This document shows, in pieces, positions 1,420-47,210 of a stretch of 64,000 bases of DNA. Below the pieces are notes generated by a model that was not told where the DNA came from, made no database searches, and saw only the letters and a program-made list of their open reading frames with translations. The translations under genes and the position numbers were made by a program. Source of the stretch: a phage; assembly GCA_031520405.1 (NCBI GenBank), contig GCA_031520405.1_4842.1. One strand, written 5' to 3'. How positions within the stretch are numbered: the stretch's first letter is position 1; every line of letters begins with the position of its first letter.

Positions 1420-2118
1420 ATGGCCAGACCATTTGAAAAATATTTCTACCATGAATCGTTGTTGAAATATATCCATGTTTTCAACGCTATCATGTCGGAT
1501 TTAAAAGTCAAAACCGAACGTGGCTTGATGGAAATCCCGCTGCATATGGCCATTGGCCGCCGTAATGACCTCAACAGGAACGTGCCAGCCAATATGCTGC
1601 CATTTGCAACAATGTCCTTTGGTCAGTTCGAAATCAATAAACAGGTGACCAAGTCGTATCATAATCAGATATCGACTGCAACTGCGCGGTCCAAACAACG
1701 AATTCCGATCATTATAGATTTTGAATATAACATCAGAACGAAGAAACTGGTCGAAATGCTACAGGTGTTGGAACAAATTTATTCTGTGTTCACTCCTTCT
1801 GTTGACTGTCAGATAAAGGACAACGACACTTTATCTCAAGATCAGAACGTGAAGATAATGTTGGTAAATCACACGATTTCTGACAACTGGGAAGGAGACG
1901 CAACAGAATCACCACACATAGATTGTTCATTCAATTTTCAATTACATGGTCACATCTATGGAGAAGATTATTGGGTTGATGATGGTTCGGGCGGTGGGGA
2001 TCCAAACGTCATCAAAGAGATAATTATTGAAATGTCTAATGATTTGAACATGCCATGGTCGGAACTTCCTGAATGGTTCCGAGTTGATAAAGACGGCATA
2101 CATCATCCGGAGGATTGA
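1420..2118 (+). CDS. tail sheath stabilizer/tail completion protein gp15-like
   Basis: synteny and loose similarity to T4 gp15; start abuts gp14 stop. Confidence 0.55.
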   Translation: MARPFEKYFYHESLLKYIHVFNAIMSDLKVKTERGLMEIPLHMAIGRRNDLNRNVPANMLPFATMSFGQFEINKQVTKSYHNQISTATARSKQRIPIIIDFEYNIRTKKLVEMLQVLEQIYSVFTPSVDCQIKDNDTLSQDQNVKIMLVNHTISDNWEGDATESPHIDCSFNFQLHGHIYGEDYWVDDGSGGGDPNVIKEIIIEMSNDLNMPWSELPEWFRVDKDGIHHPED

Positions 2119-2120
2119 TC

Positions 2121-2801
2121 ATGAGCAATATGTCAGAAAGGTTACTCGCCACACTTGATGCGGTGACTGCCCGAGACGAAGTTGGGAAGGAGGCAATGGA
2201 GGCTGTCGCCCCTCGTCCAGGTATTGACTTCGATGAAAATACAGGTGAATGGTTTGGTGAACGTCCGGAAGGGTATCAGCCGATTCCTGAACCGCCTTCA
2301 TTGGAGGATATTGCTTCCAAGGAATCCAAAGTACCTGAGTTTGCGGACACTGATGCTACAACGGATTACAAACGGATACGCGACACAACATATGCCATGC
2401 AAGAAGCCACAATGTTCATGATGGGACAAGCCGCTAAATTGGCTGCATCCACAGAAGCTCCGCGAGCATTTTCTGTTTTCCGTGAATTGGGTGAACTCAT
2501 GCGAGGTCTGAATAAAGACTTGATGGAAAACCAGAAAACCATCAAGGCGGTAACAGGTGATAAAGAACCACCTGTTGATGACACGACAGTGGATGTTACA
2601 ACTTCACCAGACGGAACAACAACAGTATCGGTTGGGAAAAAGGCGCGATCTTCTCGCGATTTATTGAAGACGATCGAAGATGCACGCCGCCGCGCTGAAG
2701 AAAGAGCACAAGCAAAGGCCGCACAACAACCAGAAGATGAAATCATTGATGGTGAAACAGTTGATGTGAAGGAAGAAGACGATGGCGTATCAGAAGCGTG
2801 A
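2121..2801 (+). CDS. terminase small subunit (gp16-like)
   Basis: ATG 2121 preceded by GGAGG (track start 2115 is TTG); central region resembles T4 gp16; overlaps start of large terminase. Confidence 0.6.
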   Translation: MSNMSERLLATLDAVTARDEVGKEAMEAVAPRPGIDFDENTGEWFGERPEGYQPIPEPPSLEDIASKESKVPEFADTDATTDYKRIRDTTYAMQEATMFMMGQAAKLAASTEAPRAFSVFRELGELMRGLNKDLMENQKTIKAVTGDKEPPVDDTTVDVTTSPDGTTTVSVGKKARSSRDLLKTIEDARRRAEERAQAKAAQQPEDEIIDGETVDVKEEDDGVSEA

Positions 2802-4992
2802 TATAGAATATGCCCCAATTAAAACGGGGTTCAAAATAGACGATGTGAAATTGCGTATGGACCAAACGTTCATGCGCAAACCTTCTGTGCGTGCTCCTCG
2901 AGTCGAGTTAATGCTGACAGATGAACAAGAAGACGAATTCGTTGAATGTTCTATGGATGCACACTACTTCGCCGCCAACTATTACAAGATAACCACGATC
3001 GATAAGGGCTTTATCCTTTTCGATATGCATGATTATCAGAAGCAGTTGTTCCACGACTTTCAGGACTATCGATTTAATGCGGTCGTCCAGGCTCGTCAGT
3101 CCGGAAAATGTGTAAAAGGCGACACGCTTGTCACAGTTTACGATACTCTCAGCCAAGAGGAGTTGCTCCTGACTATAGGGGAGCTTCACAGCCGCTTCGA
3201 GGACGTCAACCACGCTGTGCCGCTGAATACCATTGGCAACCATGACAAGTTCGTGGACAGCCGCTTCGGCAAACGTTACTTTGTACAATCCGATAGTGGC
3301 TGGGTTCCGGTTATCGCAGCGCATAAGACGAAGAAATATGCGGAATTCGTTATTGTCACCGTTACCGGAAGGCGAATTAACGTGGCTGATGAACATATGT
3401 TCTTCACTCCGGACATGAAGGAGATATTTGCCAAAGACCTGAATGCTGGGTCATACATCATGACGACAGAAGGTCCAGAAGAAATCCGTGAGATTTGGCA
3501 GACTGGTGAATATCACCATATGTACGATCTTCAGGTCAAATCTAGTGATCAACGTTATTACACGAATGGCTTTCTCAGTCATAACACGACCGTGGTGGCG
3601 GCGTTTCTTCTTTGGTATGCGATGTTCCATTCTGATAAGGAAATCGCAGTACTGGCAAACAAAGAGAAACAAGCGATAGAAATTCTTGACCGTATCAGAA
3701 AAGCATACCAAGACCTTCCATTCTTCCTTCAGCAGGGTTGTGAGAAGTTTGGTTCTACCCTGATAGAGTTTGAGAATGGTTCTAAGATATACGCTTATGC
3801 CACGTCTTCGGACTCCATCCGTGGTCGTTCTGTATCGCTCTTGTACGTTGACGAAGTCGCGTTTATCGAAAACGACTTTGAATTTTGGGAATCAACTTTC
3901 CCAGCCATTGCATCTGCCGATACATCACGCTGTATTTTGACAAGTACTCCGAAAGGCCAGCGAGGGTTGTTCTATGATATTGTCACCAAAGCAGATCCGC
4001 GCCATCCACAATACAACGACTTCCACCTAACTGAAGTCCCATGGTATAAGGTTCCGGCATATACCAAAGATCCAGATTGGGAAACCAAACAACGTGCCCG
4101 TCTGGGGGATGCTCGTTTCGATCAAGAATTTGGCATTAAGTTCCGTGGTTCCGTGGGTTCATTGATTCCGGCCAAATGCTTAGATAAAATGACGTCCAAG
4201 TTGTATCGGGAACCTAATGAATTCACCAAGATTTATAAGGAATACGACCCACAACGTCTCTACTTTGGGATTGCGGACACTGGGAAGGGGGTGGAAGGAG
4301 ATTATTCCGTCTTAACAATTCTGGATATAACTGAATATCCGCATGTCATAGCAGCCAAGTACAGGAATAATACGATACCTCCTATGATGTATGCATACAC
4401 GATAGCTGATATGTGCACCGAATACGGGGAATGTCCTGTCCTTGTTGAAACAAACAACGACGTCGGCGGTCAGGTTATTACAATTCTTTATCAAGAGATA
4501 GAATATCCAGAAATCATATTCACATCAACAGATAACAAAGGGACGGGGAAACGGATTGGTGGACGTAAACCGGAACCTGGTATCAATACCAACAGAAAAG
4601 TCCGATCTATCGGTTGTGCTAACCTGAAAGCGCTCATTGAGAAAGAAATGTTGGTGATAGAAGACCAGGACACGATAGATGAACTCAGTACATTTGTGTT
4701 CAAAGGCGCTCGGTATGAAGCCGATGACGGTTGTCACGATGACTGTGTCATGCCGTTGGTCTTATATTCATGGGCAGTAAAACAAGAATGGTTCAGTGAT
4801 TTGACATCTACAAGTATTTCTCAGGACATGAGAAACCGAATGTCTTCAACTGAATCTCAGCAGGTATTCCCATTTGGTGGTTTAGTCGTTGGAGACACCC
4901 CATCCGAAACTGAGCATTTGCCTGGTTTCGGGGGTATTCAAGTTTTCAACGAAATGTCAGGGATGACCATGGATGAGTGGGTTAAGAATTGA
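2782..4992 (+). CDS. terminase large subunit (gp17-like), intein-containing
   Basis: strong similarity to T4 gp17 around TTVVAAFL...YVDEVAF...TSTP; Walker A RQSGK|T interrupted by 159-aa insertion. Confidence 0.9.
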   Translation: MAYQKRDIEYAPIKTGFKIDDVKLRMDQTFMRKPSVRAPRVELMLTDEQEDEFVECSMDAHYFAANYYKITTIDKGFILFDMHDYQKQLFHDFQDYRFNAVVQARQSGKCVKGDTLVTVYDTLSQEELLLTIGELHSRFEDVNHAVPLNTIGNHDKFVDSRFGKRYFVQSDSGWVPVIAAHKTKKYAEFVIVTVTGRRINVADEHMFFTPDMKEIFAKDLNAGSYIMTTEGPEEIREIWQTGEYHHMYDLQVKSSDQRYYTNGFLSHNTTVVAAFLLWYAMFHSDKEIAVLANKEKQAIEILDRIRKAYQDLPFFLQQGCEKFGSTLIEFENGSKIYAYATSSDSIRGRSVSLLYVDEVAFIENDFEFWESTFPAIASADTSRCILTSTPKGQRGLFYDIVTKADPRHPQYNDFHLTEVPWYKVPAYTKDPDWETKQRARLGDARFDQEFGIKFRGSVGSLIPAKCLDKMTSKLYREPNEFTKIYKEYDPQRLYFGIADTGKGVEGDYSVLTILDITEYPHVIAAKYRNNTIPPMMYAYTIADMCTEYGECPVLVETNNDVGGQVITILYQEIEYPEIIFTSTDNKGTGKRIGGRKPEPGINTNRKVRSIGCANLKALIEKEMLVIEDQDTIDELSTFVFKGARYEADDGCHDDCVMPLVLYSWAVKQEWFSDLTSTSISQDMRNRMSSTESQQVFPFGGLVVGDTPSETEHLPGFGGIQVFNEMSGMTMDEWVKN
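3109..3585 (+). mobile_element. mini-intein (Hint domain only, no homing endonuclease domain) in terminase P-loop
   Basis: insert begins Cys (CVKGDTLV), ends His-Asn (FLSHN) followed by Thr +1; excision restores RQSGKT Walker A matching T4 SRQLGKT. Confidence 0.75.
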
Positions 4993-4993
4993 T

Positions 4994-5002
4994 CACTAAA
5001 TA
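4994..5002 (+). promoter_or_regulatory. putative late-promoter-like motif CACTAAATA upstream of tail sheath gene
   Basis: ACTAAATA-type box ~43 nt upstream of ATG 5045; same motif recurs upstream of other late genes. Confidence 0.3.
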
Positions 5003-5044
5003 TCTTTCAAATTGAGCGAAACTCTACCGAGAAGGAATGATATT

Positions 5045-6940
5045 ATGGCAACTCAAAGCTTCAGCGTTGCGCCGTCCGTTCAGTGGACTGAGCGTGATGC
5101 CACGCTTCAGACGTCCCCGTCCGTTGTTGTTCAGGGCGCGACCGTCGGCAAATTTCAATGGGGTGAAGTTGAACTTCCAGTGCTGGTGACTGGTGGTGAG
5201 ACAGGTTTGGTGAAGAAATTCTTCAAACCCAACGACAGTACTGCGACCGATTTTCTTGTAATCGCGGACTTTTTGTCTTACAGCTCTATGGCATGGGTGA
5301 CCCGTGTTGTTGGTCCTCTGGCCAAGAACTCTGTTACCAAAGGTCAGACAGCGATTGCGATCAAAAACAAACTGGATTTTGAAACAGCAAGTCCTTCGGC
5401 GTCCATCACTTGGACTGGTCGTTATCCAGGTTCCCTGGGTAATGATATTGCTATCAATGTTTGTGATGCTGCTGGATTCTCAACTTGGGAATTCCGTAAT
5501 AACTTTGCATACGCACCTCAGTCTGGTGAATTCCATGTAGTTGTCGTAGACAAAGTTGGTCGCATTACCGACTCTGCTGGCGCGGTCGGTCAGGTTGACC
5601 GTATCTCCGTTTCTGGTACGGCTACTGCTGCTGGCACCATCAGTGTGGCAGGTGAAGATATCGCATATCTGGATACTGATACTCCAGCCGATTTGGCAAC
5701 CAAAATCGGTACAGCACTAACTTCCCTGACAAGTGTTTATTCTTCTGTTGTCGTGAAGTCCAACACTGTCATCGTGACCCATAAAGCTATTGGTCCCCAG
5801 ACAGTTACTGCTATTGTTCCAGATGATAAGGGGCTGACTGCAACCGCCGTGATTACCACTGTTGGCGCATCTGGTTCTATTATCGAAAAATACGAACTCA
5901 TGCAGAACACACAGGGTTCCAAAAAGTCCGATGGCGCGAATGCGTACTTCAAAGATGTCATCAATGATACATCAAATTGGGTGTACACCTTCGCTACCGC
6001 TCTGGCCGCAGGTGTTGTTGAATTAGAAGGCGGCGTAGACGATTATAACATCAACCGCGTGGCAGCTATCCAAGTCTTGAACAATGCTGAAGCATATGAT
6101 GCGAAGCCAGTATTTGCGTACTGTGAAGAACTGATTGAGCAACAAGCATTGATCGACTTATCTACTGAGCGAAAAGATACGGTATCTTTCGTATCCCCGC
6201 TCCGTGATACGGTTGTTGGCAACCGTGGTCGTGAAATGGATGATGTCGTTGCTTGGCGTGAAAGCCTTGTTCGCGACTCTTCTTATTTCTTCATGGATGA
6301 TAACTGGGCATATGTGTACGACAAGTACAACGACAAAATGCGTTGGATTCCGGCTTGTGGTGGCACCGCAGGTGTTTGGGCGCGAAGCATTGAAATCGCG
6401 GGTATCTACAAATCTCCGGCGTTCCACAACCGTGGTAAATACAACAACTATAATCGAATGGCGTGGTCTGCTTCTTCTGATGAACGTGCTGTGTTGTACC
6501 GCAATCAGATCAACAGCATCGTAACCTTCTCCAATGAAGGCATCGTCCTGTATGGTGACAAAACTGGCCTGACCCGCCCGTCGGCGTTTGACCGCATCAA
6601 CGTTCGTGGTCTGTTCATCATGGCTGAGCAGAACATCGCCGCAATCGCCAAATACTATCTTGGTGAGAACAATGACGCGTTTACACGTGGTCTGTTCAGC
6701 AATGCGGTTCGTCCATATATTCGCCAGCTGGCAAATATGGGCGCGATTTACGATGGTAAAGTCAAATGTGATGAAGACAACAACACTGCTGATATCATTG
6801 CGGCAAACCAAATGGTTGCTGGTATCTGGTTGAAGCCTGAGTACAGCATAAATTGGGTGTATCTTGACTTTGCTGCAGTTCGACCAGATATGGAGTTCAG
6901 CGAAATCGAATCCGGTGGCGGCATCGTTGCTGCTTCATAA
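5045..6940 (+). CDS. tail sheath protein (gp18-like)
   Basis: GKFQWG and C-terminal GDKTG...FDRINVR similarity to T4 gp18; ATG 5045 with GAAGGAA RBS (track start 5012 is TTG). Confidence 0.9.
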   Translation: MATQSFSVAPSVQWTERDATLQTSPSVVVQGATVGKFQWGEVELPVLVTGGETGLVKKFFKPNDSTATDFLVIADFLSYSSMAWVTRVVGPLAKNSVTKGQTAIAIKNKLDFETASPSASITWTGRYPGSLGNDIAINVCDAAGFSTWEFRNNFAYAPQSGEFHVVVVDKVGRITDSAGAVGQVDRISVSGTATAAGTISVAGEDIAYLDTDTPADLATKIGTALTSLTSVYSSVVVKSNTVIVTHKAIGPQTVTAIVPDDKGLTATAVITTVGASGSIIEKYELMQNTQGSKKSDGANAYFKDVINDTSNWVYTFATALAAGVVELEGGVDDYNINRVAAIQVLNNAEAYDAKPVFAYCEELIEQQALIDLSTERKDTVSFVSPLRDTVVGNRGREMDDVVAWRESLVRDSSYFFMDDNWAYVYDKYNDKMRWIPACGGTAGVWARSIEIAGIYKSPAFHNRGKYNNYNRMAWSASSDERAVLYRNQINSIVTFSNEGIVLYGDKTGLTRPSAFDRINVRGLFIMAEQNIAAIAKYYLGENNDAFTRGLFSNAVRPYIRQLANMGAIYDGKVKCDEDNNTADIIAANQMVAGIWLKPEYSINWVYLDFAAVRPDMEFSEIESGGGIVAAS

Positions 6941-6996: not shown

Positions 6997-7455
6997 ATGA
7001 TATACGCATACAAAATTGAAACGATAACTAATGGAAAGGTCTACATCGGTGTGACCAATGACCCACAACGAAGATATGATCAGCATTTTGCGAATGCTTT
7101 TCATCATGGAGTCCAAAGTGAATTGTATGATGCCATGCGTAAGTATGGAACATCTGGATTTACTTTCGTTGTAATTGCTCAGACCGATGAAGTCCATAAA
7201 TGGGAATTAGAGAAGCAACTCATCTCTCAATATAATTCTTATGAGATGGGTTACAACATGAATAAAGGCGGTAATGATGGAAGTCATATGCTGGGTAAAA
7301 CTGCAGCAAAATTGACATCCACAGGTGAACACATTGGTCTTGTTTCTCTCATAGATCCCCGTTGGGAATTGTGTGAAATCGAACCCGTTTTAAGCAATGT
7401 TGACCACGGATTTGATTTTTCTTCCATGAAGATTAAAAGATTGACGACTAATTAG
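6997..7455 (+). CDS. GIY-YIG endonuclease (putative free-standing homing endonuclease)
   Basis: N-terminal IYAYKIE...GKVYIGVT...RRYDQH, later Glu and Asn: GIY-YIG catalytic core; inserted between gp18 and gp19 after terminator. Confidence 0.65.
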   Translation: MIYAYKIETITNGKVYIGVTNDPQRRYDQHFANAFHHGVQSELYDAMRKYGTSGFTFVVIAQTDEVHKWELEKQLISQYNSYEMGYNMNKGGNDGSHMLGKTAAKLTSTGEHIGLVSLIDPRWELCEIEPVLSNVDHGFDFSSMKIKRLTTN

Positions 7456-11960: not shown

Positions 11961-13283
11961 ATGACTAAGAAACTTGTAACCGAAGAAATGCGCAAACAGT
12001 GGCTGCCAGTTCTCCAAAAAGAATCTGAAGCTATTCAACCTCTGTCTGCCGAAAACGTAACCATCCGTCTGATGCAGAACCAGGCTGAATGGAACGCAAA
12101 AAACCTGGGCGAATCTGACGCACCTGGTTCTGTGAACAGCACTGTCGGTAAATGGCAGCCAGTTCTGATCGACATGGCAAAACGTCTGGCGCCGATCAAC
12201 ATCGCGATGGACTTCTTCGGTGTTCAGCCGCTGTCTGGTCCTGACGGTCAGATCTTTGCACTGCGCGCTCGCCAGGGTGTTGGTGACAGTTCCAACACCG
12301 CACAGTCTCGTAAAGAACTGTTCATGCAGGAAGCCGATTCCGGCTATTCCGGTGATGGTACTGTACAGGCTGGCGACCCGTCAGGCTTTAGTCAGGCTGA
12401 GATCGAAGGTTCCGGCTCTGTCGTGACCACTATCGGTAAAGGTATGCCGTCAACCGACGCGGAACTGCTGGGTACTACCACCAATCCGTGGGCGCGTGTT
12501 GGTATCACCGTTCAGAAAGCGACCGTTACTGCCAAGTCTCGCGGCCTGTACGCTGATTACAGCCATGAACTGCGTCAGGACATGATGGCAATTCACGGCG
12601 AAGACGTGGACAATATCCTGTCTGACGTGATGGTAACTGAAATTCAGGCGGAAATGAACCGTGAATTCATCCGTACCATGAACTTCAGTGCTGTTCGCTT
12701 CAAAAAATTCGGCACCAACGGTGTTGTTGATATCGCGCAGGACATCTCCGGTCGTTGGGCGCTGGAAAAATGGAAGTTCCTAACTTTCATGCTGGAAGTT
12801 GAAGCGAACGGTATCGGTGTTGACACCCGTCGTGGTAAAGGCAACCGTGTTCTGTGTTCTCCGAACGTGGCATCCGCTCTGGCGATGTCTGGCATGCTGG
12901 ACTATGCTCCGGTTCTACAGGAAAACACTAAACTGGCTGTTGACCCGACTGGCCAGACCTTCGCTGGTGTTCTGTCCAACGGTATGCGCGTCTATGTTGA
13001 CCCGTATGCTGTAGCAGAATATATCACTCTGGCATACAAAGGCGCAACTGCGCTGGATGCCGGTATCTTCTTCGCGCCGTATGTGCCGCTGGAAATGTAC
13101 CGCACCCAGGGTGAAACCACCTTCGCTCCGCGTATGGCGTTCAAAACCCGTTACGGCATCTGTGCTAACCCGTTCGTACAGATTCCGGCTAACCAAGACC
13201 CGCAGGTTTACGTGACTGCTGACGGTATTGCTCAAGACAGCAACCCGTATTTCCGCAAAGGTCTGATCAAATCTCTGTTCTAA
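11961..13283 (+). CDS. major capsid protein (gp23-like)
   Basis: FFGVQPLSGPDGQIFALRA matches T4 gp23 ICGVQPMNSPTGQVFALRA; strongly biased codon usage. Confidence 0.9.
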   Translation: MTKKLVTEEMRKQWLPVLQKESEAIQPLSAENVTIRLMQNQAEWNAKNLGESDAPGSVNSTVGKWQPVLIDMAKRLAPINIAMDFFGVQPLSGPDGQIFALRARQGVGDSSNTAQSRKELFMQEADSGYSGDGTVQAGDPSGFSQAEIEGSGSVVTTIGKGMPSTDAELLGTTTNPWARVGITVQKATVTAKSRGLYADYSHELRQDMMAIHGEDVDNILSDVMVTEIQAEMNREFIRTMNFSAVRFKKFGTNGVVDIAQDISGRWALEKWKFLTFMLEVEANGIGVDTRRGKGNRVLCSPNVASALAMSGMLDYAPVLQENTKLAVDPTGQTFAGVLSNGMRVYVDPYAVAEYITLAYKGATALDAGIFFAPYVPLEMYRTQGETTFAPRMAFKTRYGICANPFVQIPANQDPQVYVTADGIAQDSNPYFRKGLIKSLF

Positions 13284-13301
13284 TCGACAGGTTTTGATAA
13301 C

Positions 13302-13329
13302 AAACCCCGCCGAAGCGGGGTTTTTCTTT
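13302..13329 (+). terminator. rho-independent terminator
   Basis: AAACCCCGC-CGAA-GCGGGGTTT hairpin plus T-run. Confidence 0.7.
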
Positions 13330-13377
13330 ATAGGGATATGTAAGATAATAAAGCCTCATTTATCAAAGGAGGTTAAA

Positions 13378-13614
13378 ATGTCTCATCAATTATCCGGCGG
13401 TGCCGTCGATACTCTATTCGTTCTTTTCTGGTTTGGACCTCGTGAAGCTGGGGAAATACCTGCTAAATCTGGAGAAGCCGAATTGGCCTCCCTGGGGTTT
13501 TGTAAACGAGTTGATGTTAAAAACGTACCAAAAGGTCGAGATACACATCTGTGTGTACTCACCGAGGAAGGTTACAAATACGCATATCTGAAATATGTTT
13601 CTCAAAATACGTGA
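13378..13614 (+). CDS. hypothetical protein
   Basis: ATG after AAAGGAGG RBS (track start 13294 spans the terminator). Confidence 0.4.
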   Translation: MSHQLSGGAVDTLFVLFWFGPREAGEIPAKSGEAELASLGFCKRVDVKNVPKGRDTHLCVLTEEGYKYAYLKYVSQNT

Positions 13615-13701
13615 TTGTTTATCGTAACGATTTAATACGCGAATAGTTCAATAACAATTCCTGTTGTACGATATAACTTTCTTACAACAGGAGTATCAGT
13701 C

Positions 13702-14016
13702 ATGACAACCCGAAATATTACCTCTGAACAATCCGTGTCACAAATCCTCATTAATTCCCGCACCCAAAAAGAACGTCTTTTTGACATCCTCACTAATGTG
13801 ATCAATATTCGTCGACAATTAGATGGTGAATTTCCCGAATCTGATTCTGAAGAAAAATCAACACACAATCCAGGTCTTGTTGGTGCTATCCTTAACATAC
13901 AAGGAGAGCAGGACGATATCATCGATAGAATCAATGCTCACATGGACGTCATCCATACTAAACTGGGAACGTTTTATCACCCAAATTGTGAAGACGAGTC
14001 TAAAGATAATTGTTAA
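13702..14016 (+). CDS. hypothetical protein
   Basis: ORF with AGGAG RBS. Confidence 0.5.
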   Translation: MTTRNITSEQSVSQILINSRTQKERLFDILTNVINIRRQLDGEFPESDSEEKSTHNPGLVGAILNIQGEQDDIIDRINAHMDVIHTKLGTFYHPNCEDESKDNC

Positions 14017-14077
14017 TGTTTTCAATAAATGGGTAATGAACCATCATTACCCAACTTTCACAATAGGAATACAACTC

Positions 14078-14272
14078 ATGGCAAAAGAAACTCTTAACAA
14101 TGAAAACTCCAACTTTGCAGAATGGCATACCGAATTAGAGCGCGTTGCCCGTTCTCAACATGGTTCTGCCGCTGATGCAGATGCTTGGCGTGAAGATTAT
14201 GAATCTGGAAAAACTCCACGTCAGGCTTGGGAAGACGAATGGGGGTGGGATGATGCCGACTCTAATCCGTAA
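14078..14272 (+). CDS. hypothetical protein (64 aa)
   Basis: in-frame ATG with AGGAA RBS inside longer track ORF. Confidence 0.4.
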   Translation: MAKETLNNENSNFAEWHTELERVARSQHGSAADADAWREDYESGKTPRQAWEDEWGWDDADSNP

Positions 14273-14483
14273 GATATATCTGGATAAGAACTATTTGGAA
14301 TCTAAAATCGAAGTTTTCACGGCTCAAAAAATATTTGAAGACGGTGAAACGAGATATTATCTGAATCCAGACCTTTATCTCCCAGGAAGTAATTTGAATC
14401 GCGACATATCCCAAATAGATGGCACAATCATTCGTTGGGAAATAGCGACGCAAGAAGACAACTGTCACAACATAACACTTTGA
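14250..14483 (+). CDS. hypothetical protein
   Basis: ATG preceded by G-rich RBS; overlaps upstream stop. Confidence 0.4.
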   Translation: MMPTLIRKIYLDKNYLESKIEVFTAQKIFEDGETRYYLNPDLYLPGSNLNRDISQIDGTIIRWEIATQEDNCHNITL

Positions 14484-14498
14484 AGAGAGAACTACATC

Positions 14499-14945
14499 AT
14501 GTCTAAACAAAATTATATCTTTATTAGTCCAGGACGTTCCCAGTTTTTTCGTAGCGACATCGATACACCTATCGAAGGTTTTCGCATTTTCAAATGCTAT
14601 AAATTGGCCAGCGGTGACATTGATTATCAAAGTCACGACAATGACCGCCAAGACTTGGTTGATAACGGTTGGGAAGAAATAGATTCTCCTCAATATCTGA
14701 CCGTCAACCTTTATTATATGAAGGAAAGCGGTAAATATTATTCGACTGGGGAGTTGAAAATCCGAGTTTCAGAAGCCCAATCCAATCCAGCAAAAAGTTG
14801 GTATGACACGCAAGAGTTAGTGCGTGATCTCCTGAAGAAAGGCGAACTGCCTGGCTTGGTTAAAGGTTCCCGTTTTGATACCTTCATGTCCTGCGAACAA
14901 CACCCGTGCTATGTTCCGACTTTATTTAAAATCAGCAACATGTGA
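14499..14945 (+). CDS. hypothetical protein
   Basis: ORF with GAGAGA RBS-like sequence. Confidence 0.5.
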   Translation: MSKQNYIFISPGRSQFFRSDIDTPIEGFRIFKCYKLASGDIDYQSHDNDRQDLVDNGWEEIDSPQYLTVNLYYMKESGKYYSTGELKIRVSEAQSNPAKSWYDTQELVRDLLKKGELPGLVKGSRFDTFMSCEQHPCYVPTLFKISNM

Positions 14946-14956
14946 GAGATTAATAT

Positions 14957-15331
14957 ATGAGCAATTTACCACTGCTTCAAGTCGGCGATGTGTTCGTTCT
15001 CACAGAAGAAATGACCATTGAAACTCAGGTGCCTAAGCATTTCTTGTATTCTAATTGCAAGGGAGATTGGCAAACGGACTCTGGTTATATCACCCCTGAG
15101 GGATTCTTCGGTTACATGCAAGGGCATTATGTCGTTACCAAAACAGCTCTACAAGGAGGTAGCGCTGGTCACGACCCATACCCAGACGGTCATCATGTTT
15201 GGGCACAGCATACCGAAAATGAACGCATCAGGATCTGTTTTTATCAGACAGGCAGCTTCAGAAACATGCACCGTAACGTTCCAGTAGTCGGAAAAGCCAA
15301 GGCGCAAACATGGACTTGGGAGAAATTATGA
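14957..15331 (+). CDS. hypothetical protein
   Basis: ORF closely following previous gene. Confidence 0.5.
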   Translation: MSNLPLLQVGDVFVLTEEMTIETQVPKHFLYSNCKGDWQTDSGYITPEGFFGYMQGHYVVTKTALQGGSAGHDPYPDGHHVWAQHTENERIRICFYQTGSFRNMHRNVPVVGKAKAQTWTWEKL

Positions 15332-25992: not shown

Positions 25993-26019
25993 CAGAGGCT
26001 ATAATGGCCTCTGTTTTTT
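25993..26019 (+). terminator. rho-independent terminator
   Basis: CAGAGGC-TATAATG-GCCTCTG hairpin then T6. Confidence 0.6.
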
Positions 26020-26038
26020 GTATTCTAGAGAGGATACC

Positions 26039-27244
26039 ATGAAAGATAAACCGTGTGACATTCCTTATTGCGGTGTTCGGGAAGCTAAAATTAAATCTGC
26101 ACATCCCATGTTAAGCCCATTCCATAAACAACTCGCATACGAATGGATGAGCGAGCGTTATAAGATCCACGTGAGAAAGGACGTCCAGCGTCTTCCTGCT
26201 CCTTGGACGGATAATCCCATACTACGGCAGGTCAAGTTCTGTAACGTCCGGAGAGAGCACGATAGGCAGTCTCGAAATTTGATCAATAATATCATCCTCG
26301 ATCAGGATCTCACGCTATCTGACAAAATGTTTAACTGTGTATTGTTCCGCATGTACAACATGTGGGAACCTATACAGGCTTTGGGTGGTCCATGGACGAT
26401 CGAAGAATTCGGAAACATAAATCTTGAATGGTGTCGAGATGTTCTTCAGGAATTCGAATCTAAAGGTGGCAAAGTTTTCACCAATGCGTTTAATACAGGC
26501 GGTCTGAAACAATGCCTGGCTTTCCCTGAACTAGTTGTCAACCACAAGGAGCAACGCTTTGGCGGCATGAAGGTAAAAGTCCATCGGGTTGGCGGTGTTA
26601 TAGATGAAATGGATTACAAGGTTGCCAAGAAGCTGGCCGAAGATAATCCTGGTGAATACAAAATAGAAGGCTGGGAACCATACATGCCGATGCGAGTCAT
26701 CCGCTCTTTGAAGGCATTCGTCAACAAACACCCTCATTACTTTGATCGCCTCAGGGAATTTAGCCGTCCCGACTCTGTTTACCAGGCGATGTATGACGAC
26801 ATTGAGGGGCTTGGACCATTCTTGGCATACCAGATTTGGGTTGATTTTACATACATCGATGAATATCCATTCAGTGAAAACCACTTCACTATCGCTGGTC
26901 CAGGTTGCCGTGCTGGTATCGATCTGTTATTTTTGGACAAGGACGGCATGACGCATGAAGAATGCATATTCTGGGTTCGTGATCATCAAGATCAATTGTT
27001 CGCTCAGTACGGGTATAAACGTAATGAATTTTGGTCGGCAGAAGAACCGGAAGACCGTTGCATGAATGTTATGCAGTTGGAGAACATGTTCTGTGAACTT
27101 CAGAAATATACCCGCTGCGTTGAGGCGGTGATGCGCGGGGAGAAACCTCGAGGAAAGGTGGGGTATAATGGTGGTGAAGTTAATCAGCCATTACAGAAGA
27201 CTCCCGTTCGTTCTATTAATCTGTTAGAGAAGATGAAAAAATGA
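26039..27244 (+). CDS. hypothetical protein (401 aa)
   Basis: ATG with GAGAGGA RBS (track start 26018 is TTG); no domain confidently recognised. Confidence 0.5.
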   Translation: MKDKPCDIPYCGVREAKIKSAHPMLSPFHKQLAYEWMSERYKIHVRKDVQRLPAPWTDNPILRQVKFCNVRREHDRQSRNLINNIILDQDLTLSDKMFNCVLFRMYNMWEPIQALGGPWTIEEFGNINLEWCRDVLQEFESKGGKVFTNAFNTGGLKQCLAFPELVVNHKEQRFGGMKVKVHRVGGVIDEMDYKVAKKLAEDNPGEYKIEGWEPYMPMRVIRSLKAFVNKHPHYFDRLREFSRPDSVYQAMYDDIEGLGPFLAYQIWVDFTYIDEYPFSENHFTIAGPGCRAGIDLLFLDKDGMTHEECIFWVRDHQDQLFAQYGYKRNEFWSAEEPEDRCMNVMQLENMFCELQKYTRCVEAVMRGEKPRGKVGYNGGEVNQPLQKTPVRSINLLEKMKK

Positions 27245-27648
27245 AACCCGTAAAACATCATCGTTCATGGAAAGTATGCCCAGCGTGTTCAAGTCGGGCG
27301 ACAAAATTGTTCAACATGAATACTGGGAAATATGAATGTCAAGTCTGTCGGCATCATTATGATGATCCAAAATGTCGATCTTTGGTCGACAAAATTTATA
27401 AATTTATCATTTTGTTGGGTAATTGCGAGCAATATCAATATACCGTGTATGGTGATAGTTTAAGCCAGATCGATAAACATCTTTTGAAATTGATTTCGAA
27501 ATACGATAAAGAAAGCAAGCGCCCTGTGCGCGTTGTGAGTACTCCAAAGGGTTATCCAAAGGGAACAAGATCAGTTACGGTTGTTGGTTACACCAGTTAT
27601 GACGGGAAACGGTTCAGAAGTATTCGAGTAAACATGATTCCCGTTTAA
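27241..27648 (+). CDS. zinc-ribbon protein
   Basis: CPAC...CQVC pair near N-terminus; ATGA overlap with upstream gene. Confidence 0.45.
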   Translation: MKPVKHHRSWKVCPACSSRATKLFNMNTGKYECQVCRHHYDDPKCRSLVDKIYKFIILLGNCEQYQYTVYGDSLSQIDKHLLKLISKYDKESKRPVRVVSTPKGYPKGTRSVTVVGYTSYDGKRFRSIRVNMIPV

Positions 27649-27744
27649 ACTTTTCAATAAATCTTTTCAGCGTATATTGACCTCACTTTAACGACGCGCC
27701 CCGATAAGGGCGCTCACTTTGAACTGAAACAGGAAGACTATACC

Positions 27745-44053: not shown

Positions 44054-44581
44054 ATGATTGAAATATACACTGACGGGGCATCATCCCCTCAGAAGACACG
44101 AGCCGCTGGTTGGGCATTTGCCATCAGTCCAATCACTGGAGAGCAATGGAAAGTGTTTTATGGGTATTTACCCCCGCCGTCAACGAACAATATAGCTGAG
44201 TTACTCGGGGTTATAAACGCGATGAAGATCCTATGGAAATTCTCTAATTGCGGTGAACGCTGCATTCCCCCAGCCCGCATTATATCCGACAGCCAATATG
44301 TTATCAATAGCGTTTTGGAGTGGCGTCGTAAATGGGAATATGAAGGAATGCCGCCTAAGAACACAGAACTTCTGCTCGAGTTGTTCGATTATTATGACAA
44401 AGTTTGTTCAATTTGTGAACTTGAATTAAAATGGGTGAAAGGTCATGCAGGAACGATGGGCAACGAAATTGCGGATCAGTGGAGCGTTAGAGCCAAAGAA
44501 GATAGTTCAATGGTTCTTGAAAATAACCGTTTCTCGGTCAAGAAAGTCGTTGGTTCTTTCAATGAATTCATTGGTATTTGA
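44054..44581 (+). CDS. RNase HI-like ribonuclease H
   Basis: IEIYTDGAS, NNIAELLGVINA, DSQYVIN, WVKGHAG...NEIADQ match bacterial RNase HI catalytic motifs. Confidence 0.75.
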   Translation: MIEIYTDGASSPQKTRAAGWAFAISPITGEQWKVFYGYLPPPSTNNIAELLGVINAMKILWKFSNCGERCIPPARIISDSQYVINSVLEWRRKWEYEGMPPKNTELLLELFDYYDKVCSICELELKWVKGHAGTMGNEIADQWSVRAKEDSSMVLENNRFSVKKVVGSFNEFIGI

Positions 44582-44591
44582 GGATTATGCA

Positions 44592-45314
44592 ATGGGTATT
44601 CCATTCGTTTACTGTTTGGAAAGTAAGGATGGTCATTTGTATTTTGGTTCCAAGATTGGTGAAGAGTCTGATCCAAAGCAGCTCATGGAAACATATTTCA
44701 CTTCATCAAAATATGTAAAAGATTTGATGAAATCAAAAGGAAATGATTATTTTCAGGTAGTGGGTATAGAAATATTCCCCAACCAACCTGAAGAAGCGTT
44801 TTGGAAAGAACAACAATTGATAGAGTCCTTTTACGGCAACCCCATGCTACTAAACAAACATTATCAAACTGCTGGAACTAAACCGTGGACTCAATTAGGT
44901 AGAAAGGGGAATCAACAGTATTTGTTTGGCAATGGGCACCTCCGCGCTGGCAAAAACAATCCTATGTATGGCAAACAAGGAGCCATGAAAGGTATTACAG
45001 GGAAAGACCATCCTGCCTATGGCGCAGATCGTTCAGGTTCCAAAAATGGCATGTTTGGAAAATATGGAGAATTACATCACCATTATGGAACTCCTCCATG
45101 GGAAGTTCCAATAAGCAAGAAATTGGGAACTTCTAAACATTGGTTGGATGCAGAAGAAATACGTTTGGAATGGATTGCTGGCGCAAGGCAATGCGACTTG
45201 TCAAGAAAATATGGAATTAGCATAAAGACTATTGAAACTATGGTCGGCAAATTCCGTTCCGGTTGGATACCTTCACAAGACCCTCAGTGGATTAATTTTA
45301 AAGGTGGTGTATAA
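44592..45314 (+). CDS. Seg-like GIY-YIG homing endonuclease with NUMOD3-like repeats and C-terminal HTH
   Basis: FVYCLESKDGHLYFGSK GIY-YIG core; repeated G-x-N-P-x-Y-G-K linker motifs; HTH-like segment near C-terminus. Confidence 0.6.
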   Translation: MGIPFVYCLESKDGHLYFGSKIGEESDPKQLMETYFTSSKYVKDLMKSKGNDYFQVVGIEIFPNQPEEAFWKEQQLIESFYGNPMLLNKHYQTAGTKPWTQLGRKGNQQYLFGNGHLRAGKNNPMYGKQGAMKGITGKDHPAYGADRSGSKNGMFGKYGELHHHYGTPPWEVPISKKLGTSKHWLDAEEIRLEWIAGARQCDLSRKYGISIKTIETMVGKFRSGWIPSQDPQWINFKGGV

Positions 45315-46108
45315 TGTGCGCTATGAATTATGTGGACAGGGGTGATAATGTCACCAAATATTTCACTGACGAAGATAATGACCGTGTTGTTGGAATATTG
45401 AGAGATTGGATTCCGGCTCGCAAAAAGGCTTTGGCCGAAGGAACACCCCTACCAAGAATCCCCAATTATGTGGCCATGAATGTTCAGATGATTATTAAGA
45501 ACATGAGTATGCGCTACAACTATCGTGATTATCCATACCGCGAAGACATGGTCAGTGAGGCCGTTGTCAACATCCTTCGTTACCTCCATACATTTGACGT
45601 CAGTCATATCGGCAAGAAAGGAAAAATCAATTTCTTCTCTTGGGTAACGATGTGCGCCGATCGTTCATTCGCCAAGAAACTCACCAGTGAAGAAGAACAC
45701 AATTATATCAAGTTGCGTTCATTTGAAGAAGCAGGTGGTTTCGCTGCATTATCAGATGACCCAGACTTCCAGCAACAGACATTCGTAGACAGCACTGGTA
45801 TAACAATGGACTTTCGTGAGCGTATCGGAAATTTTGAAACTAAGAAAGAAGCCCAGCGCGAAAAGGAACGCCAAAAGCAAATCGCCATCAAAGAAGAGGA
45901 AAAGAATAAGAAAATTCCTCGCGGTATACTTCAATGTCTCACAAAGAGTGAAAATACCATTACCGCCGACGCCGAAGATAATTCAGACTATGACTTCGGC
46001 TCTACTCAATTCAATCTGGAAGACGAAATATGTTCTATGGAACCAGATTGGGAAGAAGCAAAGAAACGAGCATTAGAACGGGAGCAACAAAATAATGGCG
46101 ATTGCTAA
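45314..46108 (+). CDS. late sigma factor gp55-like, with extended acidic C-terminus
   Basis: VAMNVQMIIKNMSMRYNYRDYPYREDMVSEAVVNILRYLHTFD parallels T4 gp55 core; adjacent to gp47 as in T4. Confidence 0.6.
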   Translation: MCAMNYVDRGDNVTKYFTDEDNDRVVGILRDWIPARKKALAEGTPLPRIPNYVAMNVQMIIKNMSMRYNYRDYPYREDMVSEAVVNILRYLHTFDVSHIGKKGKINFFSWVTMCADRSFAKKLTSEEEHNYIKLRSFEEAGGFAALSDDPDFQQQTFVDSTGITMDFRERIGNFETKKEAQREKERQKQIAIKEEEKNKKIPRGILQCLTKSENTITADAEDNSDYDFGSTQFNLEDEICSMEPDWEEAKKRALEREQQNNGDC

Positions 46109-47210
46109 AATTGGCGATTTACATATCGGGAGCCGTAATGGTTCCCGTTACGTTCGAGAATTCATAAAGAATTATCTCATCAATTATTTTATTCCAGAAT
46201 TGGTTGACGCCGATATTAAAGAAGTGTGGCAATTTGGTGATACGTTTGATGTTCGCAAATTCATGTATGGTCGCGATAAAGATTGGTTGAAAGATGAATT
46301 GACGCCAGCGCTGCGCAAAGCAGGTATTAAATGGAATGGCATCGTCGGCAACCATGATATCACGTTAGAAGAGTCCAATCGTATTAACTGGCCTTCTTAT
46401 CTTAATGAATTGGCACCGGATGTTTATCATTATTACAGCGAACCAACTGAAGTAATGATTGAAGGTGTCAAGACCCTCCTACTGCCGTGGATTAACAAAG
46501 AGAACTATGATGCGTCCATTAAAGCGATACAAGATACAGACGCCAAGTACTGTTTTGCGCATCTGGAGTTGGCAGGGTTCAAAATGTACCAGTCCTCTGT
46601 ATGTGATAAAGGTCAGATCGACTTGGCGCTCCTTTCGAAATTCGAGCGCGTGGATACCGGACATTTCCATACCCGTTCGATGGAAGGTAACATTCAGTAT
46701 ATTGGGACTCCTTATCACCTTACCTGGGAAGACCACAAAGACGGGACGAACCGAGGATTCTATGTAGACGACATGAATGGCGGGGAATTGTTTATCCCCA
46801 ACAACGAACAACAAACGTTGTTCCGGTTCGTGGAATACGACTACACCCAAATGTCTTCTGATACTGAAGGTAATTGGATCGACCCCGATTGGTTAAACAA
46901 TGTTTTGGGTATTGAAGGGCAAATCGTTAAGGTGATTGTACAGAACCGTGACAATGCCAAGCATTATGAAAAGTTCTGTGACGCATTGAAGCGCTGTAAA
47001 TGCATCGATTACAACTTCATCGATCGGACGATTACTGTTGCTTCCGAGAAGGTAGAAGTCACTGAAGAGATGGTGGCTACTGATGCGGTGGAAGTCTTGA
47101 AGAAAGATATCCGCGCCGCCAATAATATCCAGCGCCCTGAAAATGTTTGCAAATTAGCAGAACAATTCTATAATGCTGCCCAACAACGCCTGAACACATT
47201 GGATGCATAA
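46095..47210 (+). CDS. recombination endonuclease subunit gp47-like (Mre11/SbcD family)
   Basis: N-terminal GDLHIG metallophosphatase motif, GNHD, GHFH. Confidence 0.8.
   Translation: MAIAKIGDLHIGSRNGSRYVREFIKNYLINYFIPELVDADIKEVWQFGDTFDVRKFMYGRDKDWLKDELTPALRKAGIKWNGIVGNHDITLEESNRINWPSYLNELAPDVYHYYSEPTEVMIEGVKTLLLPWINKENYDASIKAIQDTDAKYCFAHLELAGFKMYQSSVCDKGQIDLALLSKFERVDTGHFHTRSMEGNIQYIGTPYHLTWEDHKDGTNRGFYVDDMNGGELFIPNNEQQTLFRFVEYDYTQMSSDTEGNWIDPDWLNNVLGIEGQIVKVIVQNRDNAKHYEKFCDALKRCKCIDYNFIDRTITVASEKVEVTEEMVATDAVEVLKKDIRAANNIQRPENVCKLAEQFYNAAQQRLNTLDA

Follow-up and report, generated by a model that had tools for sequence, protein, structure and literature searches.

What is the open reading frame that separates a ribonuclease H gene from the gene of a late sigma factor in this phage genome, and how might it have come to lie there? 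The window, the whole stretch of 64,000 nt that we analyzed (phage contig GCA_031520405.1_4842.1; coordinates refer to this stretch unless another phage is named), is identified by sequence comparison as the genome of a Vi1-like Salmonella phage (Kuttervirus, Ackermannviridae), and the 3-kb stretch around the open reading frame shows 99.0–99.2% identity to phages BRM 13313, S115, and rabagast. A sequence-only reading had described this open reading frame as a Seg-like GIY-YIG homing endonuclease gene with NUMOD3-type repeats and a C-terminal helix-turn-helix (HTH). Its observation as a whole is partly confirmed by our analysis, and its interpretation is supported. In our judgment, the open reading frame is very probably a free-standing, Seg-like GIY-YIG homing endonuclease gene. 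The coordinates given earlier were correct, including the length of 240 aa (Table 1).

The gene lies on the same strand as its neighbors and outside any intron or intein. It had been placed between rnh and gene 55, and the position holds, as a ribonuclease H gene and a gp55-type gene indeed flank it, but the upstream gene is not T4 rnh: we rejected a T4-type 5'-3' exonuclease/flap nuclease because PF00075 (E 6e-24) identifies a bacterial-type RNase HI. We keep the name rnh for this gene below. The annotation of relatives places its start at the equivalent of 44054, and its stop codon is the TGA at 44579–44581. The start of the endonuclease gene had also been said to overlap the end of rnh, which is wrong, because a 10-nt gap separates the rnh stop codon from the endonuclease ATG at 44592, and only the longest mechanical version of the open reading frame, beginning at 44445, reaches into rnh. 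It is the 3' end of the gene that overlaps a neighbor: its TAA (45312–45314) shares the last A with the gp55 ATG (45314–45316). Homologs of gp47 and gp46 come next after the gp55 gene. In this region, the rabagast genome, which is about 15 kb shorter than its relatives, has its gp47 homolog annotated as a shorter gene (4896–5687, 792 nt, compared with 1116 nt at 46095–47210 in the window), and its alignment with the window breaks down about 1.5 kb downstream of gp55 (from 5714 onward in rabagast). The third-position GC content of the endonuclease gene is 34%, compared with 43–48% in the neighboring genes. No paralog of the endonuclease was found within the window.

Table 1. Features of the endonuclease locus and related genes in the window.
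Feature	Coordinates	Strand	Details
RNase HI-type ribonuclease H gene (upstream neighbor)	44054–44581	+	PF00075 E 6.1e-24; phrog_531 E 3e-61
Shine-Dalgarno-like GAGG	44580–44583	+	8 nt upstream of the endonuclease ATG; read from sequence
Mobile cassette, 734 nt	44589–45322	+	Replaces 10 nt, CACGATGGGT, of gene-less relatives; comparison with PhaxI and five IMG/VR genomes
Endonuclease open reading frame	44592–45314	+	240 aa; read from sequence
GIY-YIG nuclease domain, aa 1–95	44592–44876	+	Strands 5–11, 16–21, 54–61; helices 40–49, 66–79
Flexible linker, five degenerate NUMOD3-like units	44907–45092	+	aa 106–114, 120–128, 137–145, 149–157, 159–167
C-terminal helical DNA-binding domain, aa 170–237	45099–45302	+	Predicted
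gp55 translation signals inside the cassette	45301–45316	+	SD-like AAGGTGGTG at 45301–45309; TAATG stop/start overlap
gp55-type late sigma factor gene (downstream neighbor)	45314–46108	+	phrog_234 E 1.6e-53; annotation in relatives
5-hmdU DNA kinase gene	26018–27244	+	PF18723 E 6e-85; marks the Vi1-like thymidine hypermodification pathway

The assignment to the GIY-YIG family is carried by the fold and by the conserved residues. In an AlphaFold model built on an alignment of 51 relatives, residues 1–100 form an N-terminal domain with pLDDT values of 90–98 and the order strand-strand-helix-strand-helix, which corresponds to the alpha/beta GIY-YIG fold of a three-stranded sheet with flanking helices. 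The sequence-only reading had named the lack of such a fold as a ground for giving it up, and the fold is there. The 'GIY' and 'YIG' elements appear as F-V-Y (residues 5–7) and Y-F-G (residues 17–19) at the expected spacing of about 10–11 residues, and the key residues of the domain are Y7, Y17, G19, K21, Y35, S38, S39, E73, and N88. Our conservation counts refer to the same alignment, which comprises 51 of the 361 relatives found by HMMER. Y7, Y17, and G19 are present in 50 of the 51 sequences, S38 is near-invariant, and Y35, S39, E73, and N88 are invariant in all 51, which bears out the proposed GIY-YIG core. A profile-profile alignment (hhalign) pairs Y7, Y17, E73, and N88 with Y6, Y17, E75, and N90 of I-TevI, so that the catalytic glutamate (E75) and the structural asparagine (N90) both have a counterpart. 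The catalytic Arg27 of I-TevI falls into an alignment gap and has no aligned residue in the query; the nearest conserved basic positions are K21 (arginine in 40 and lysine in nine of the 51 relatives), K40, and K43. The T4 enzymes SegD, SegE, and SegG likewise have no residue aligned with Arg27. We also show here that the open reading frame is under purifying selection, with dN/dS between alleles of 0.10–0.12 in each of the three domains.

Individual database searches gave less. A word-indexed protein search returned only three close matches, and the query reached only 15.9 bits against SegE_GIY-YIG (PF19835), under the 25-bit cut-off. It had no match to PF01541 in Pfam, and searches of NCBIfam and of the PDB sequences with the query found nothing. 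Because single-sequence searches were of so little help, an exhaustive HMMER search and the 51-sequence alignment were needed; the former collected 361 relatives at E ≤ 0.001, but only seven at E ≤ 1e-10. Among the PHROGs, the query matched phrog_314, 'homing endonuclease', with E 1.9e-25. Of the aligned relatives, 21 of 51 passed E < 0.001 against PF19835 and four of 51 against PF01541. In the domain search suggested earlier as a check, members of the family match SegE_GIY-YIG and NUMOD3, and the query itself stays sub-threshold in Pfam.

The nuclease domain is followed by a Gly/Lys-rich linker, which is disordered in the AlphaFold model (about residues 103–165, pLDDT 45–57). Repeats of the form G-x-N-P-x-Y-G-K had been reported for it. 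Repeated units of glycine and aromatic residues do occur, but that literal motif is absent from the linker. The best unit reads GKNNPMYGK (residues 120–128), and the four others are degenerate, G-x-x-[N/H/Q]-x-x-[Y/F]-G. Six [YF]G dipeptides are found in residues 101–168, a number reached by six of 20,000 shuffled sequences. The query scored 12.2 bits against the 37-residue NUMOD3 profile (PF07460), under the cut-off of 20.4, and the match covers only profile positions 17–26, at residues 119–128; 28 of the 51 relatives passed E < 0.001 against the same profile. Unlike those of I-TevI, the units retain a single half of NUMOD3, G-x-x-N-P-x-Y-G-K; the canonical helix half (S-E-E-T-K-x-K-I-S) is absent. 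Even so, when the family profile is aligned with the DNA-binding domain of I-TevI (1i3j), the linker falls on its NUMOD3 segment (E 0.008). The label 'NUMOD3-type' holds only loosely for this linker.

The C-terminal domain (residues 170–240) is modeled as helical with pLDDT values of 91–98, and the HTH that had been proposed is borne out by the model at residues 200–222 (nt 45189–45257), with pLDDT above 90. The I-TevI DNA-binding domain profile PF20987 gave no match to the query at E values up to 1 and matched two of the 51 relatives. The domain is thus an HTH by its predicted fold only. The extreme C-terminus, TMVGKFRSGWIPSQDPQW, resembles that of T4 SegG, SMVKYFNSGWIPLEDPEY (41% identity over 29 aa, E 7e-6), the resembling part being the tail SGWIPSQDP.

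We compared the protein with the T4 enzymes by scoring the T4 genes with a profile of the 51 relatives, which gave 41.5 bits for SegD, 39.1 for SegE, 23.3 for SegG, and 16.3 for I-TevI; hhalign assigned SegG a probability of 91%. After the YIG strand comes Y-F-T-S-S-K-x-V-K...G, which is the Seg motif (Y-M/L-G-S-G-...-K-K-Y-G). Given these scores, this motif, and the SegG-like C-terminus, 'Seg-like' is the right label, as originally suggested. SegD and SegE are the best-scoring T4 relatives of the nuclease domain and share Y-x-[GT]-S-[GS]-K...G after the YIG strand, whereas their C-terminal regions cannot be aligned with the HTH of the query. SegG, which sits between genes 32 and 59 of T4, has low overall similarity to the query and shares with it the GIY-YIG domain with a 'Y-x-G-S-K' motif and the C-terminal tail SGWIP-x-x-DP. 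Like the query, SegG is encoded by a free-standing, promoter-less cassette carrying expression signals for an essential downstream gene (PMC2988022). I-TevI is encoded in the T4 td intron, whereas the query is not intron-encoded and has neither a zinc finger nor a residue aligned with Arg27.

How the gene came to its position could be addressed by comparison with relatives that lack it. Cassette-less Kutterviruses read TGAGGATTAT, CACGATGGGT, ATGAATTTTG across the junction, and the window reads TGAGGATTAT, 734 nt of cassette, ATGAATTATG. Outside the cassette, the flanks of the window are 98.6–99.5% identical to those of PhaxI and other relatives. The left boundary of the cassette could lie anywhere up to 44599, as the start of the endonuclease gene and, in gene-less relatives, that of gp55 have ATGGGTAT in common. 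The uninterrupted junction is GAGGATTATCACGATGGGTATGAATTTTGTAGAC in cassette-less Kutterviruses of the PhaxI, Det7, or Vi01 type and GAGGGTTCCCACAATGGGTATGAATTATG in Limestonevirus. In Dickeya phage XF4, of another subfamily, an ortholog with 64% identity replaces 12 nt of LIMEstone1 with the same geometry, so that two subfamilies share an insertion point at which a cassette of roughly 735 nt takes the place of 10–12 nt. Over about 6 kb, the cassette is the only difference between XF4 and LIMEstone1, with seven mismatches in 2997 nt of flank on one side and none in 2974 nt on the other.

The GAGG upstream of the endonuclease ATG is the same one that serves the gp55 start in relatives without the endonuclease, as the junctions of PhaxI and the IMG/VR relatives indicate. 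The gp55 gene starts with ATGTGYGCWATGAAT in every carrier and with ATGGGYATGAAT in every non-carrier, across four genera, and this split points to one ancestral insertion design. The gp55 gene is intact in cassette-bearing and cassette-less genomes alike. We found no sigma-70-like promoter and no terminator on the + strand beside the endonuclease gene, which therefore probably shares a transcript with rnh and gp55. With one match against 1.8 expected, the T4 late-promoter motif TATAAATA shows no enrichment in the window, and an RNA hairpin covering the start codon scored no better than in shuffled sequences (z −1.08). Because the cassette supplies the ribosome-binding site (RBS) and start codon of gp55, its simple deletion would damage the expression of an essential gene. 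These signals are a translational counterpart of the promoters embedded in T4 seg genes.

The distribution of the cassette among relatives strongly suggests mobility. The region is carried by 37 of 260 related records, and the rnh/gp55 junction is uninterrupted in 223 of 264 (about 85%). A comparison of this junction had been proposed earlier, together with the caveat that a gene conserved in all relatives as a non-nuclease would speak against the assignment; what we found is a sporadic gene with clean presence and absence alleles. At least two relatives, D5lw and UTK0004, carry copies that appear split, indicating that the element can decay. Paralogs with 34–38% identity occur at the uvsY/exonuclease and gp45/gp44 junctions of other Ackermannviridae; we rejected these homologs from Klebsiella, Shigella, and Escherichia phages as occupants of the rnh/gp55 site.

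The cassette and its flanks also differ in their affinities. In Marshall, rnh and gp55 are 91% and 92.5% identical in amino acids to those of XF4 and about 70% and 77% to those of the window. The endonuclease of Marshall is nevertheless of the Kuttervirus type, with 91.7% identity to the window and 64% to XF4, between Limestonevirus-like flanks. On the upstream side, the informative sites switch within about 10 nt of the ATG, and on the downstream side about 12–20 nt after the stop codon. Maynard has the cassette and upstream flank of Marshall, yet a Kuttervirus-like gp55. Mutine carries an endonuclease identical to that of the window beside a diverged rnh, and PhiSH19 has flanks 99–100% identical to those of the window around a cassette that is only about 90% identical. 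From these alignments, we show here that the histories of the cassette and the flanks are decoupled. The genomes are mosaic on a scale of 0.5–1 kb, so some of the breakpoints near the cassette could be coincidental, and the Marshall pattern could have arisen from two independent crossovers ending at heterology edges. Two of the phages contain a cross-subfamily mosaic block: a segment with helicase, structural-protein, and rnh genes is 81–100% identical to Limestonevirus XF4 per 100-nt window in Marshall (about 1500–4400) and likewise 81–100% identical in Maynard (about 1500–2890), and only 60–80% identical to other Kutterviruses. The likeness to XF4 extends to gp55 in Marshall, and the gp55-side end of the block differs between the two phages.

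The gene is real, correctly interpreted, already known at the level of annotation, and an ordinary member of a well-studied class. A 100% identical protein, rabagast_73 (QIQ61751), is annotated as 'GIY-YIG homing endonuclease'. Orthologs are found in PhiSH19 (AER70214, 93% identity), in Maynard and Marshall (Maynard_102 and Marshall_102, 92%), which were named as GIY-YIG homing endonucleases in 2013, and in the Dickeya phages XF4 and JA15, where the protein is called 'F-LimVI' (64%). These annotated orthologs in Ackermannviridae share the rnh/gp55 junction, the length, and the domain plan, and nothing of substance differs. The F-LimVI of LIMEstone1 is not the same gene as that of XF4; it lies at a different locus and has 24% identity. 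In 2011, the PhiSH19 paper listed the gene, of 240 aa and flanked by those for the late sigma factor and RNase H, as a putative homing endonuclease with no match in Vi01 (PMC3220722). The abundance of homing endonuclease genes in Ackermannviridae is documented (PMC3296691, PMC8472413, PMC5582154). Our literature search turned up neither biochemical nor genetic tests for this protein or its close orthologs.

Endonuclease content is a main difference among otherwise collinear Kutterviruses. The window has a second, canonical GIY-YIG open reading frame between the tail sheath and tail tube genes (6997–7455, + strand, 152 aa; PF01541 45 bits, above the cut-off). A 152-aa gene is listed between the tail tube and sheath genes of PhiSH19, and in the related phage barely the place is taken by another GIY-YIG gene of greater length. 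Two further homing endonuclease genes of barely (1364–2257 and 26375–27701) are absent from the window (2796–2821 and 27126–27636), one between the small and large terminase genes and the other, of 383 aa, near 27 kb, where the window has a 135-aa zinc-ribbon-like open reading frame (27241–27648) instead. After the major head protein gene, 13284–15328 of the window cannot be aligned with 12973–14420 of barely; barely has a 'NUMOD3 motif family protein' there, and in the window several open reading frames of 100–150 aa without a Pfam match lie within about 2 kb.

By analogy with the T4 Seg enzymes, we infer how homing might proceed. T4 Seg enzymes are encoded by promoter-less cassettes, introduce double-strand breaks with 2-nt 3' overhangs, and cause co-conversion as well as the exclusion of T2 markers; SegE and SegG are listed among the active enzymes (PMC2988022). 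The HTH and linker of the query would bind a long asymmetric site, with the HTH as the probable anchor, and the linker would probably become ordered along the DNA, as in I-TevI. During co-infection, the enzyme would cut a cassette-less relative at or near the rnh-stop/gp55-start junction. The break would be repaired from the carrier genome by the phage recombination system, for which the gp47 and gp46 genes lie just downstream, and the repair would copy the cassette with variable lengths of flanking sequence. With neither its own promoter nor its own terminator, the cassette borrows the RBS that serves gp55 in non-carriers and gives gp55 a new RBS and start codon within its own last codons. 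The phage DNA is probably hypermodified. Since the 5-hmdU DNA kinase gene marks a hypermodification pathway, the endonucleases of this phage family would have to act on hypermodified DNA.

Where the enzyme would cut can be proposed only tentatively. It may recognize a site spanning its own insertion point, in which case the insertion alone would confer self-immunity and the cassette lineage would have homed across flanks of about 70% identity; we consider this a plausible proposal with somewhat less than an even chance of being right. The site may then be the conserved translation-initiation region of gp55, CAC-N-ATGGGTATGAAT, at the rnh-stop/gp55-start junction. As carriers and non-carriers can be identical for about 3 kb on each side and carriers of the PhiSH19 type have the gp55 sequence of non-carriers, self-immunity is explained most simply if the target spans the insertion point. 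We also considered whether the substitutions TTT>TAT and GTA>GTG in gp55, which lie next to the cassette in the window, rabagast, and Mutine, protect the carrier, and rejected this because PhiSH19-type carriers keep the cassette-less sequence. A target spanning the insertion point would differ from the rule in T4, whose free-standing endonucleases as a group cut hundreds to thousands of base pairs from their own genes (PMC2988022).

Some of the same observations could be read differently. I-TevI doubles as an autorepressor, and with this precedent the query could be imagined as a catalytically dead GIY-YIG protein that serves only as a sequence-specific DNA binder, for example as a regulator of the rnh-55-47-46 operon. 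The missing counterpart of Arg27, the lysine in place of the usual arginine of the family at position 21, and the sub-threshold Pfam scores would agree with such a role, which we still regard as highly improbable: Y7, Y17, E73, and N88 are all kept, purifying selection acts alike on the nuclease domain and the HTH, and a patchy, cassette-like distribution is what a mobile nuclease would show and not what a regulator would. An aligned Arg27 is also missing from SegD, SegE, and SegG, and the latter two are listed among the active enzymes (PMC2988022). Purifying selection also bears on the idea of a domesticated or stranded cassette, once mobile and no longer homing, which would be kept for the gp55 signals, perhaps for the tuning of gp55 translation by the TAATG overlap. 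The gp55 start and the SD-like AAGGTGGTG do sit inside a cassette with neither its own promoter nor its own terminator, and T4 seg genes carry expression signals for downstream genes, including embedded promoters that favor their retention by an analogous logic (PMC2988022). However, gp55 signals alone would not hold dN/dS at about 0.1 across the nuclease, linker, and HTH, nor would they preserve E73 and N88. A Kuttervirus-type cassette between the Limestonevirus-like flanks of Marshall and near-identical genomes differing only by the cassette would also be left unexplained, and we judge a stranded cassette to be unlikely.

If the nuclease chiefly benefited the phage, by cutting relatives that infect the same cell, and the spread of its gene were a by-product, its activity would be the same as that of a homing endonuclease; only the beneficiary differs, and sequence data cannot separate the two. 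The exclusion of T2 markers by T4 Seg enzymes (PMC2988022) and the flanking tracts of variable length that travel with the cassette (Maynard compared with Marshall, and Mutine with the window) are in line with such competition. The cassette is found in only about 15% of related records, which speaks against a large competitive benefit, and competition as the main role is very unlikely in our estimate. Our preferred reading is that of a free-standing homing endonuclease gene.

For the phages of this family, local mosaicism around rnh and gp55 is to be expected from such a cassette. If the enzyme recognizes a site spanning its insertion point, the cassette lineage would have homed across subfamily-level divergence, with flanks about 70% identical, as in Marshall. 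The start of an essential late sigma factor gene lies inside the cassette, and naive deletion would therefore be unwise when engineering therapeutic or biocontrol phages. Ackermannviridae offer unusually clean before/after pairs (XF4 and LIMEstone1, the window and PhaxI) and a cassette transplanted into foreign flanks in Marshall, so that the element lends itself well to work on intronless homing in phages with hypermodified thymidine.
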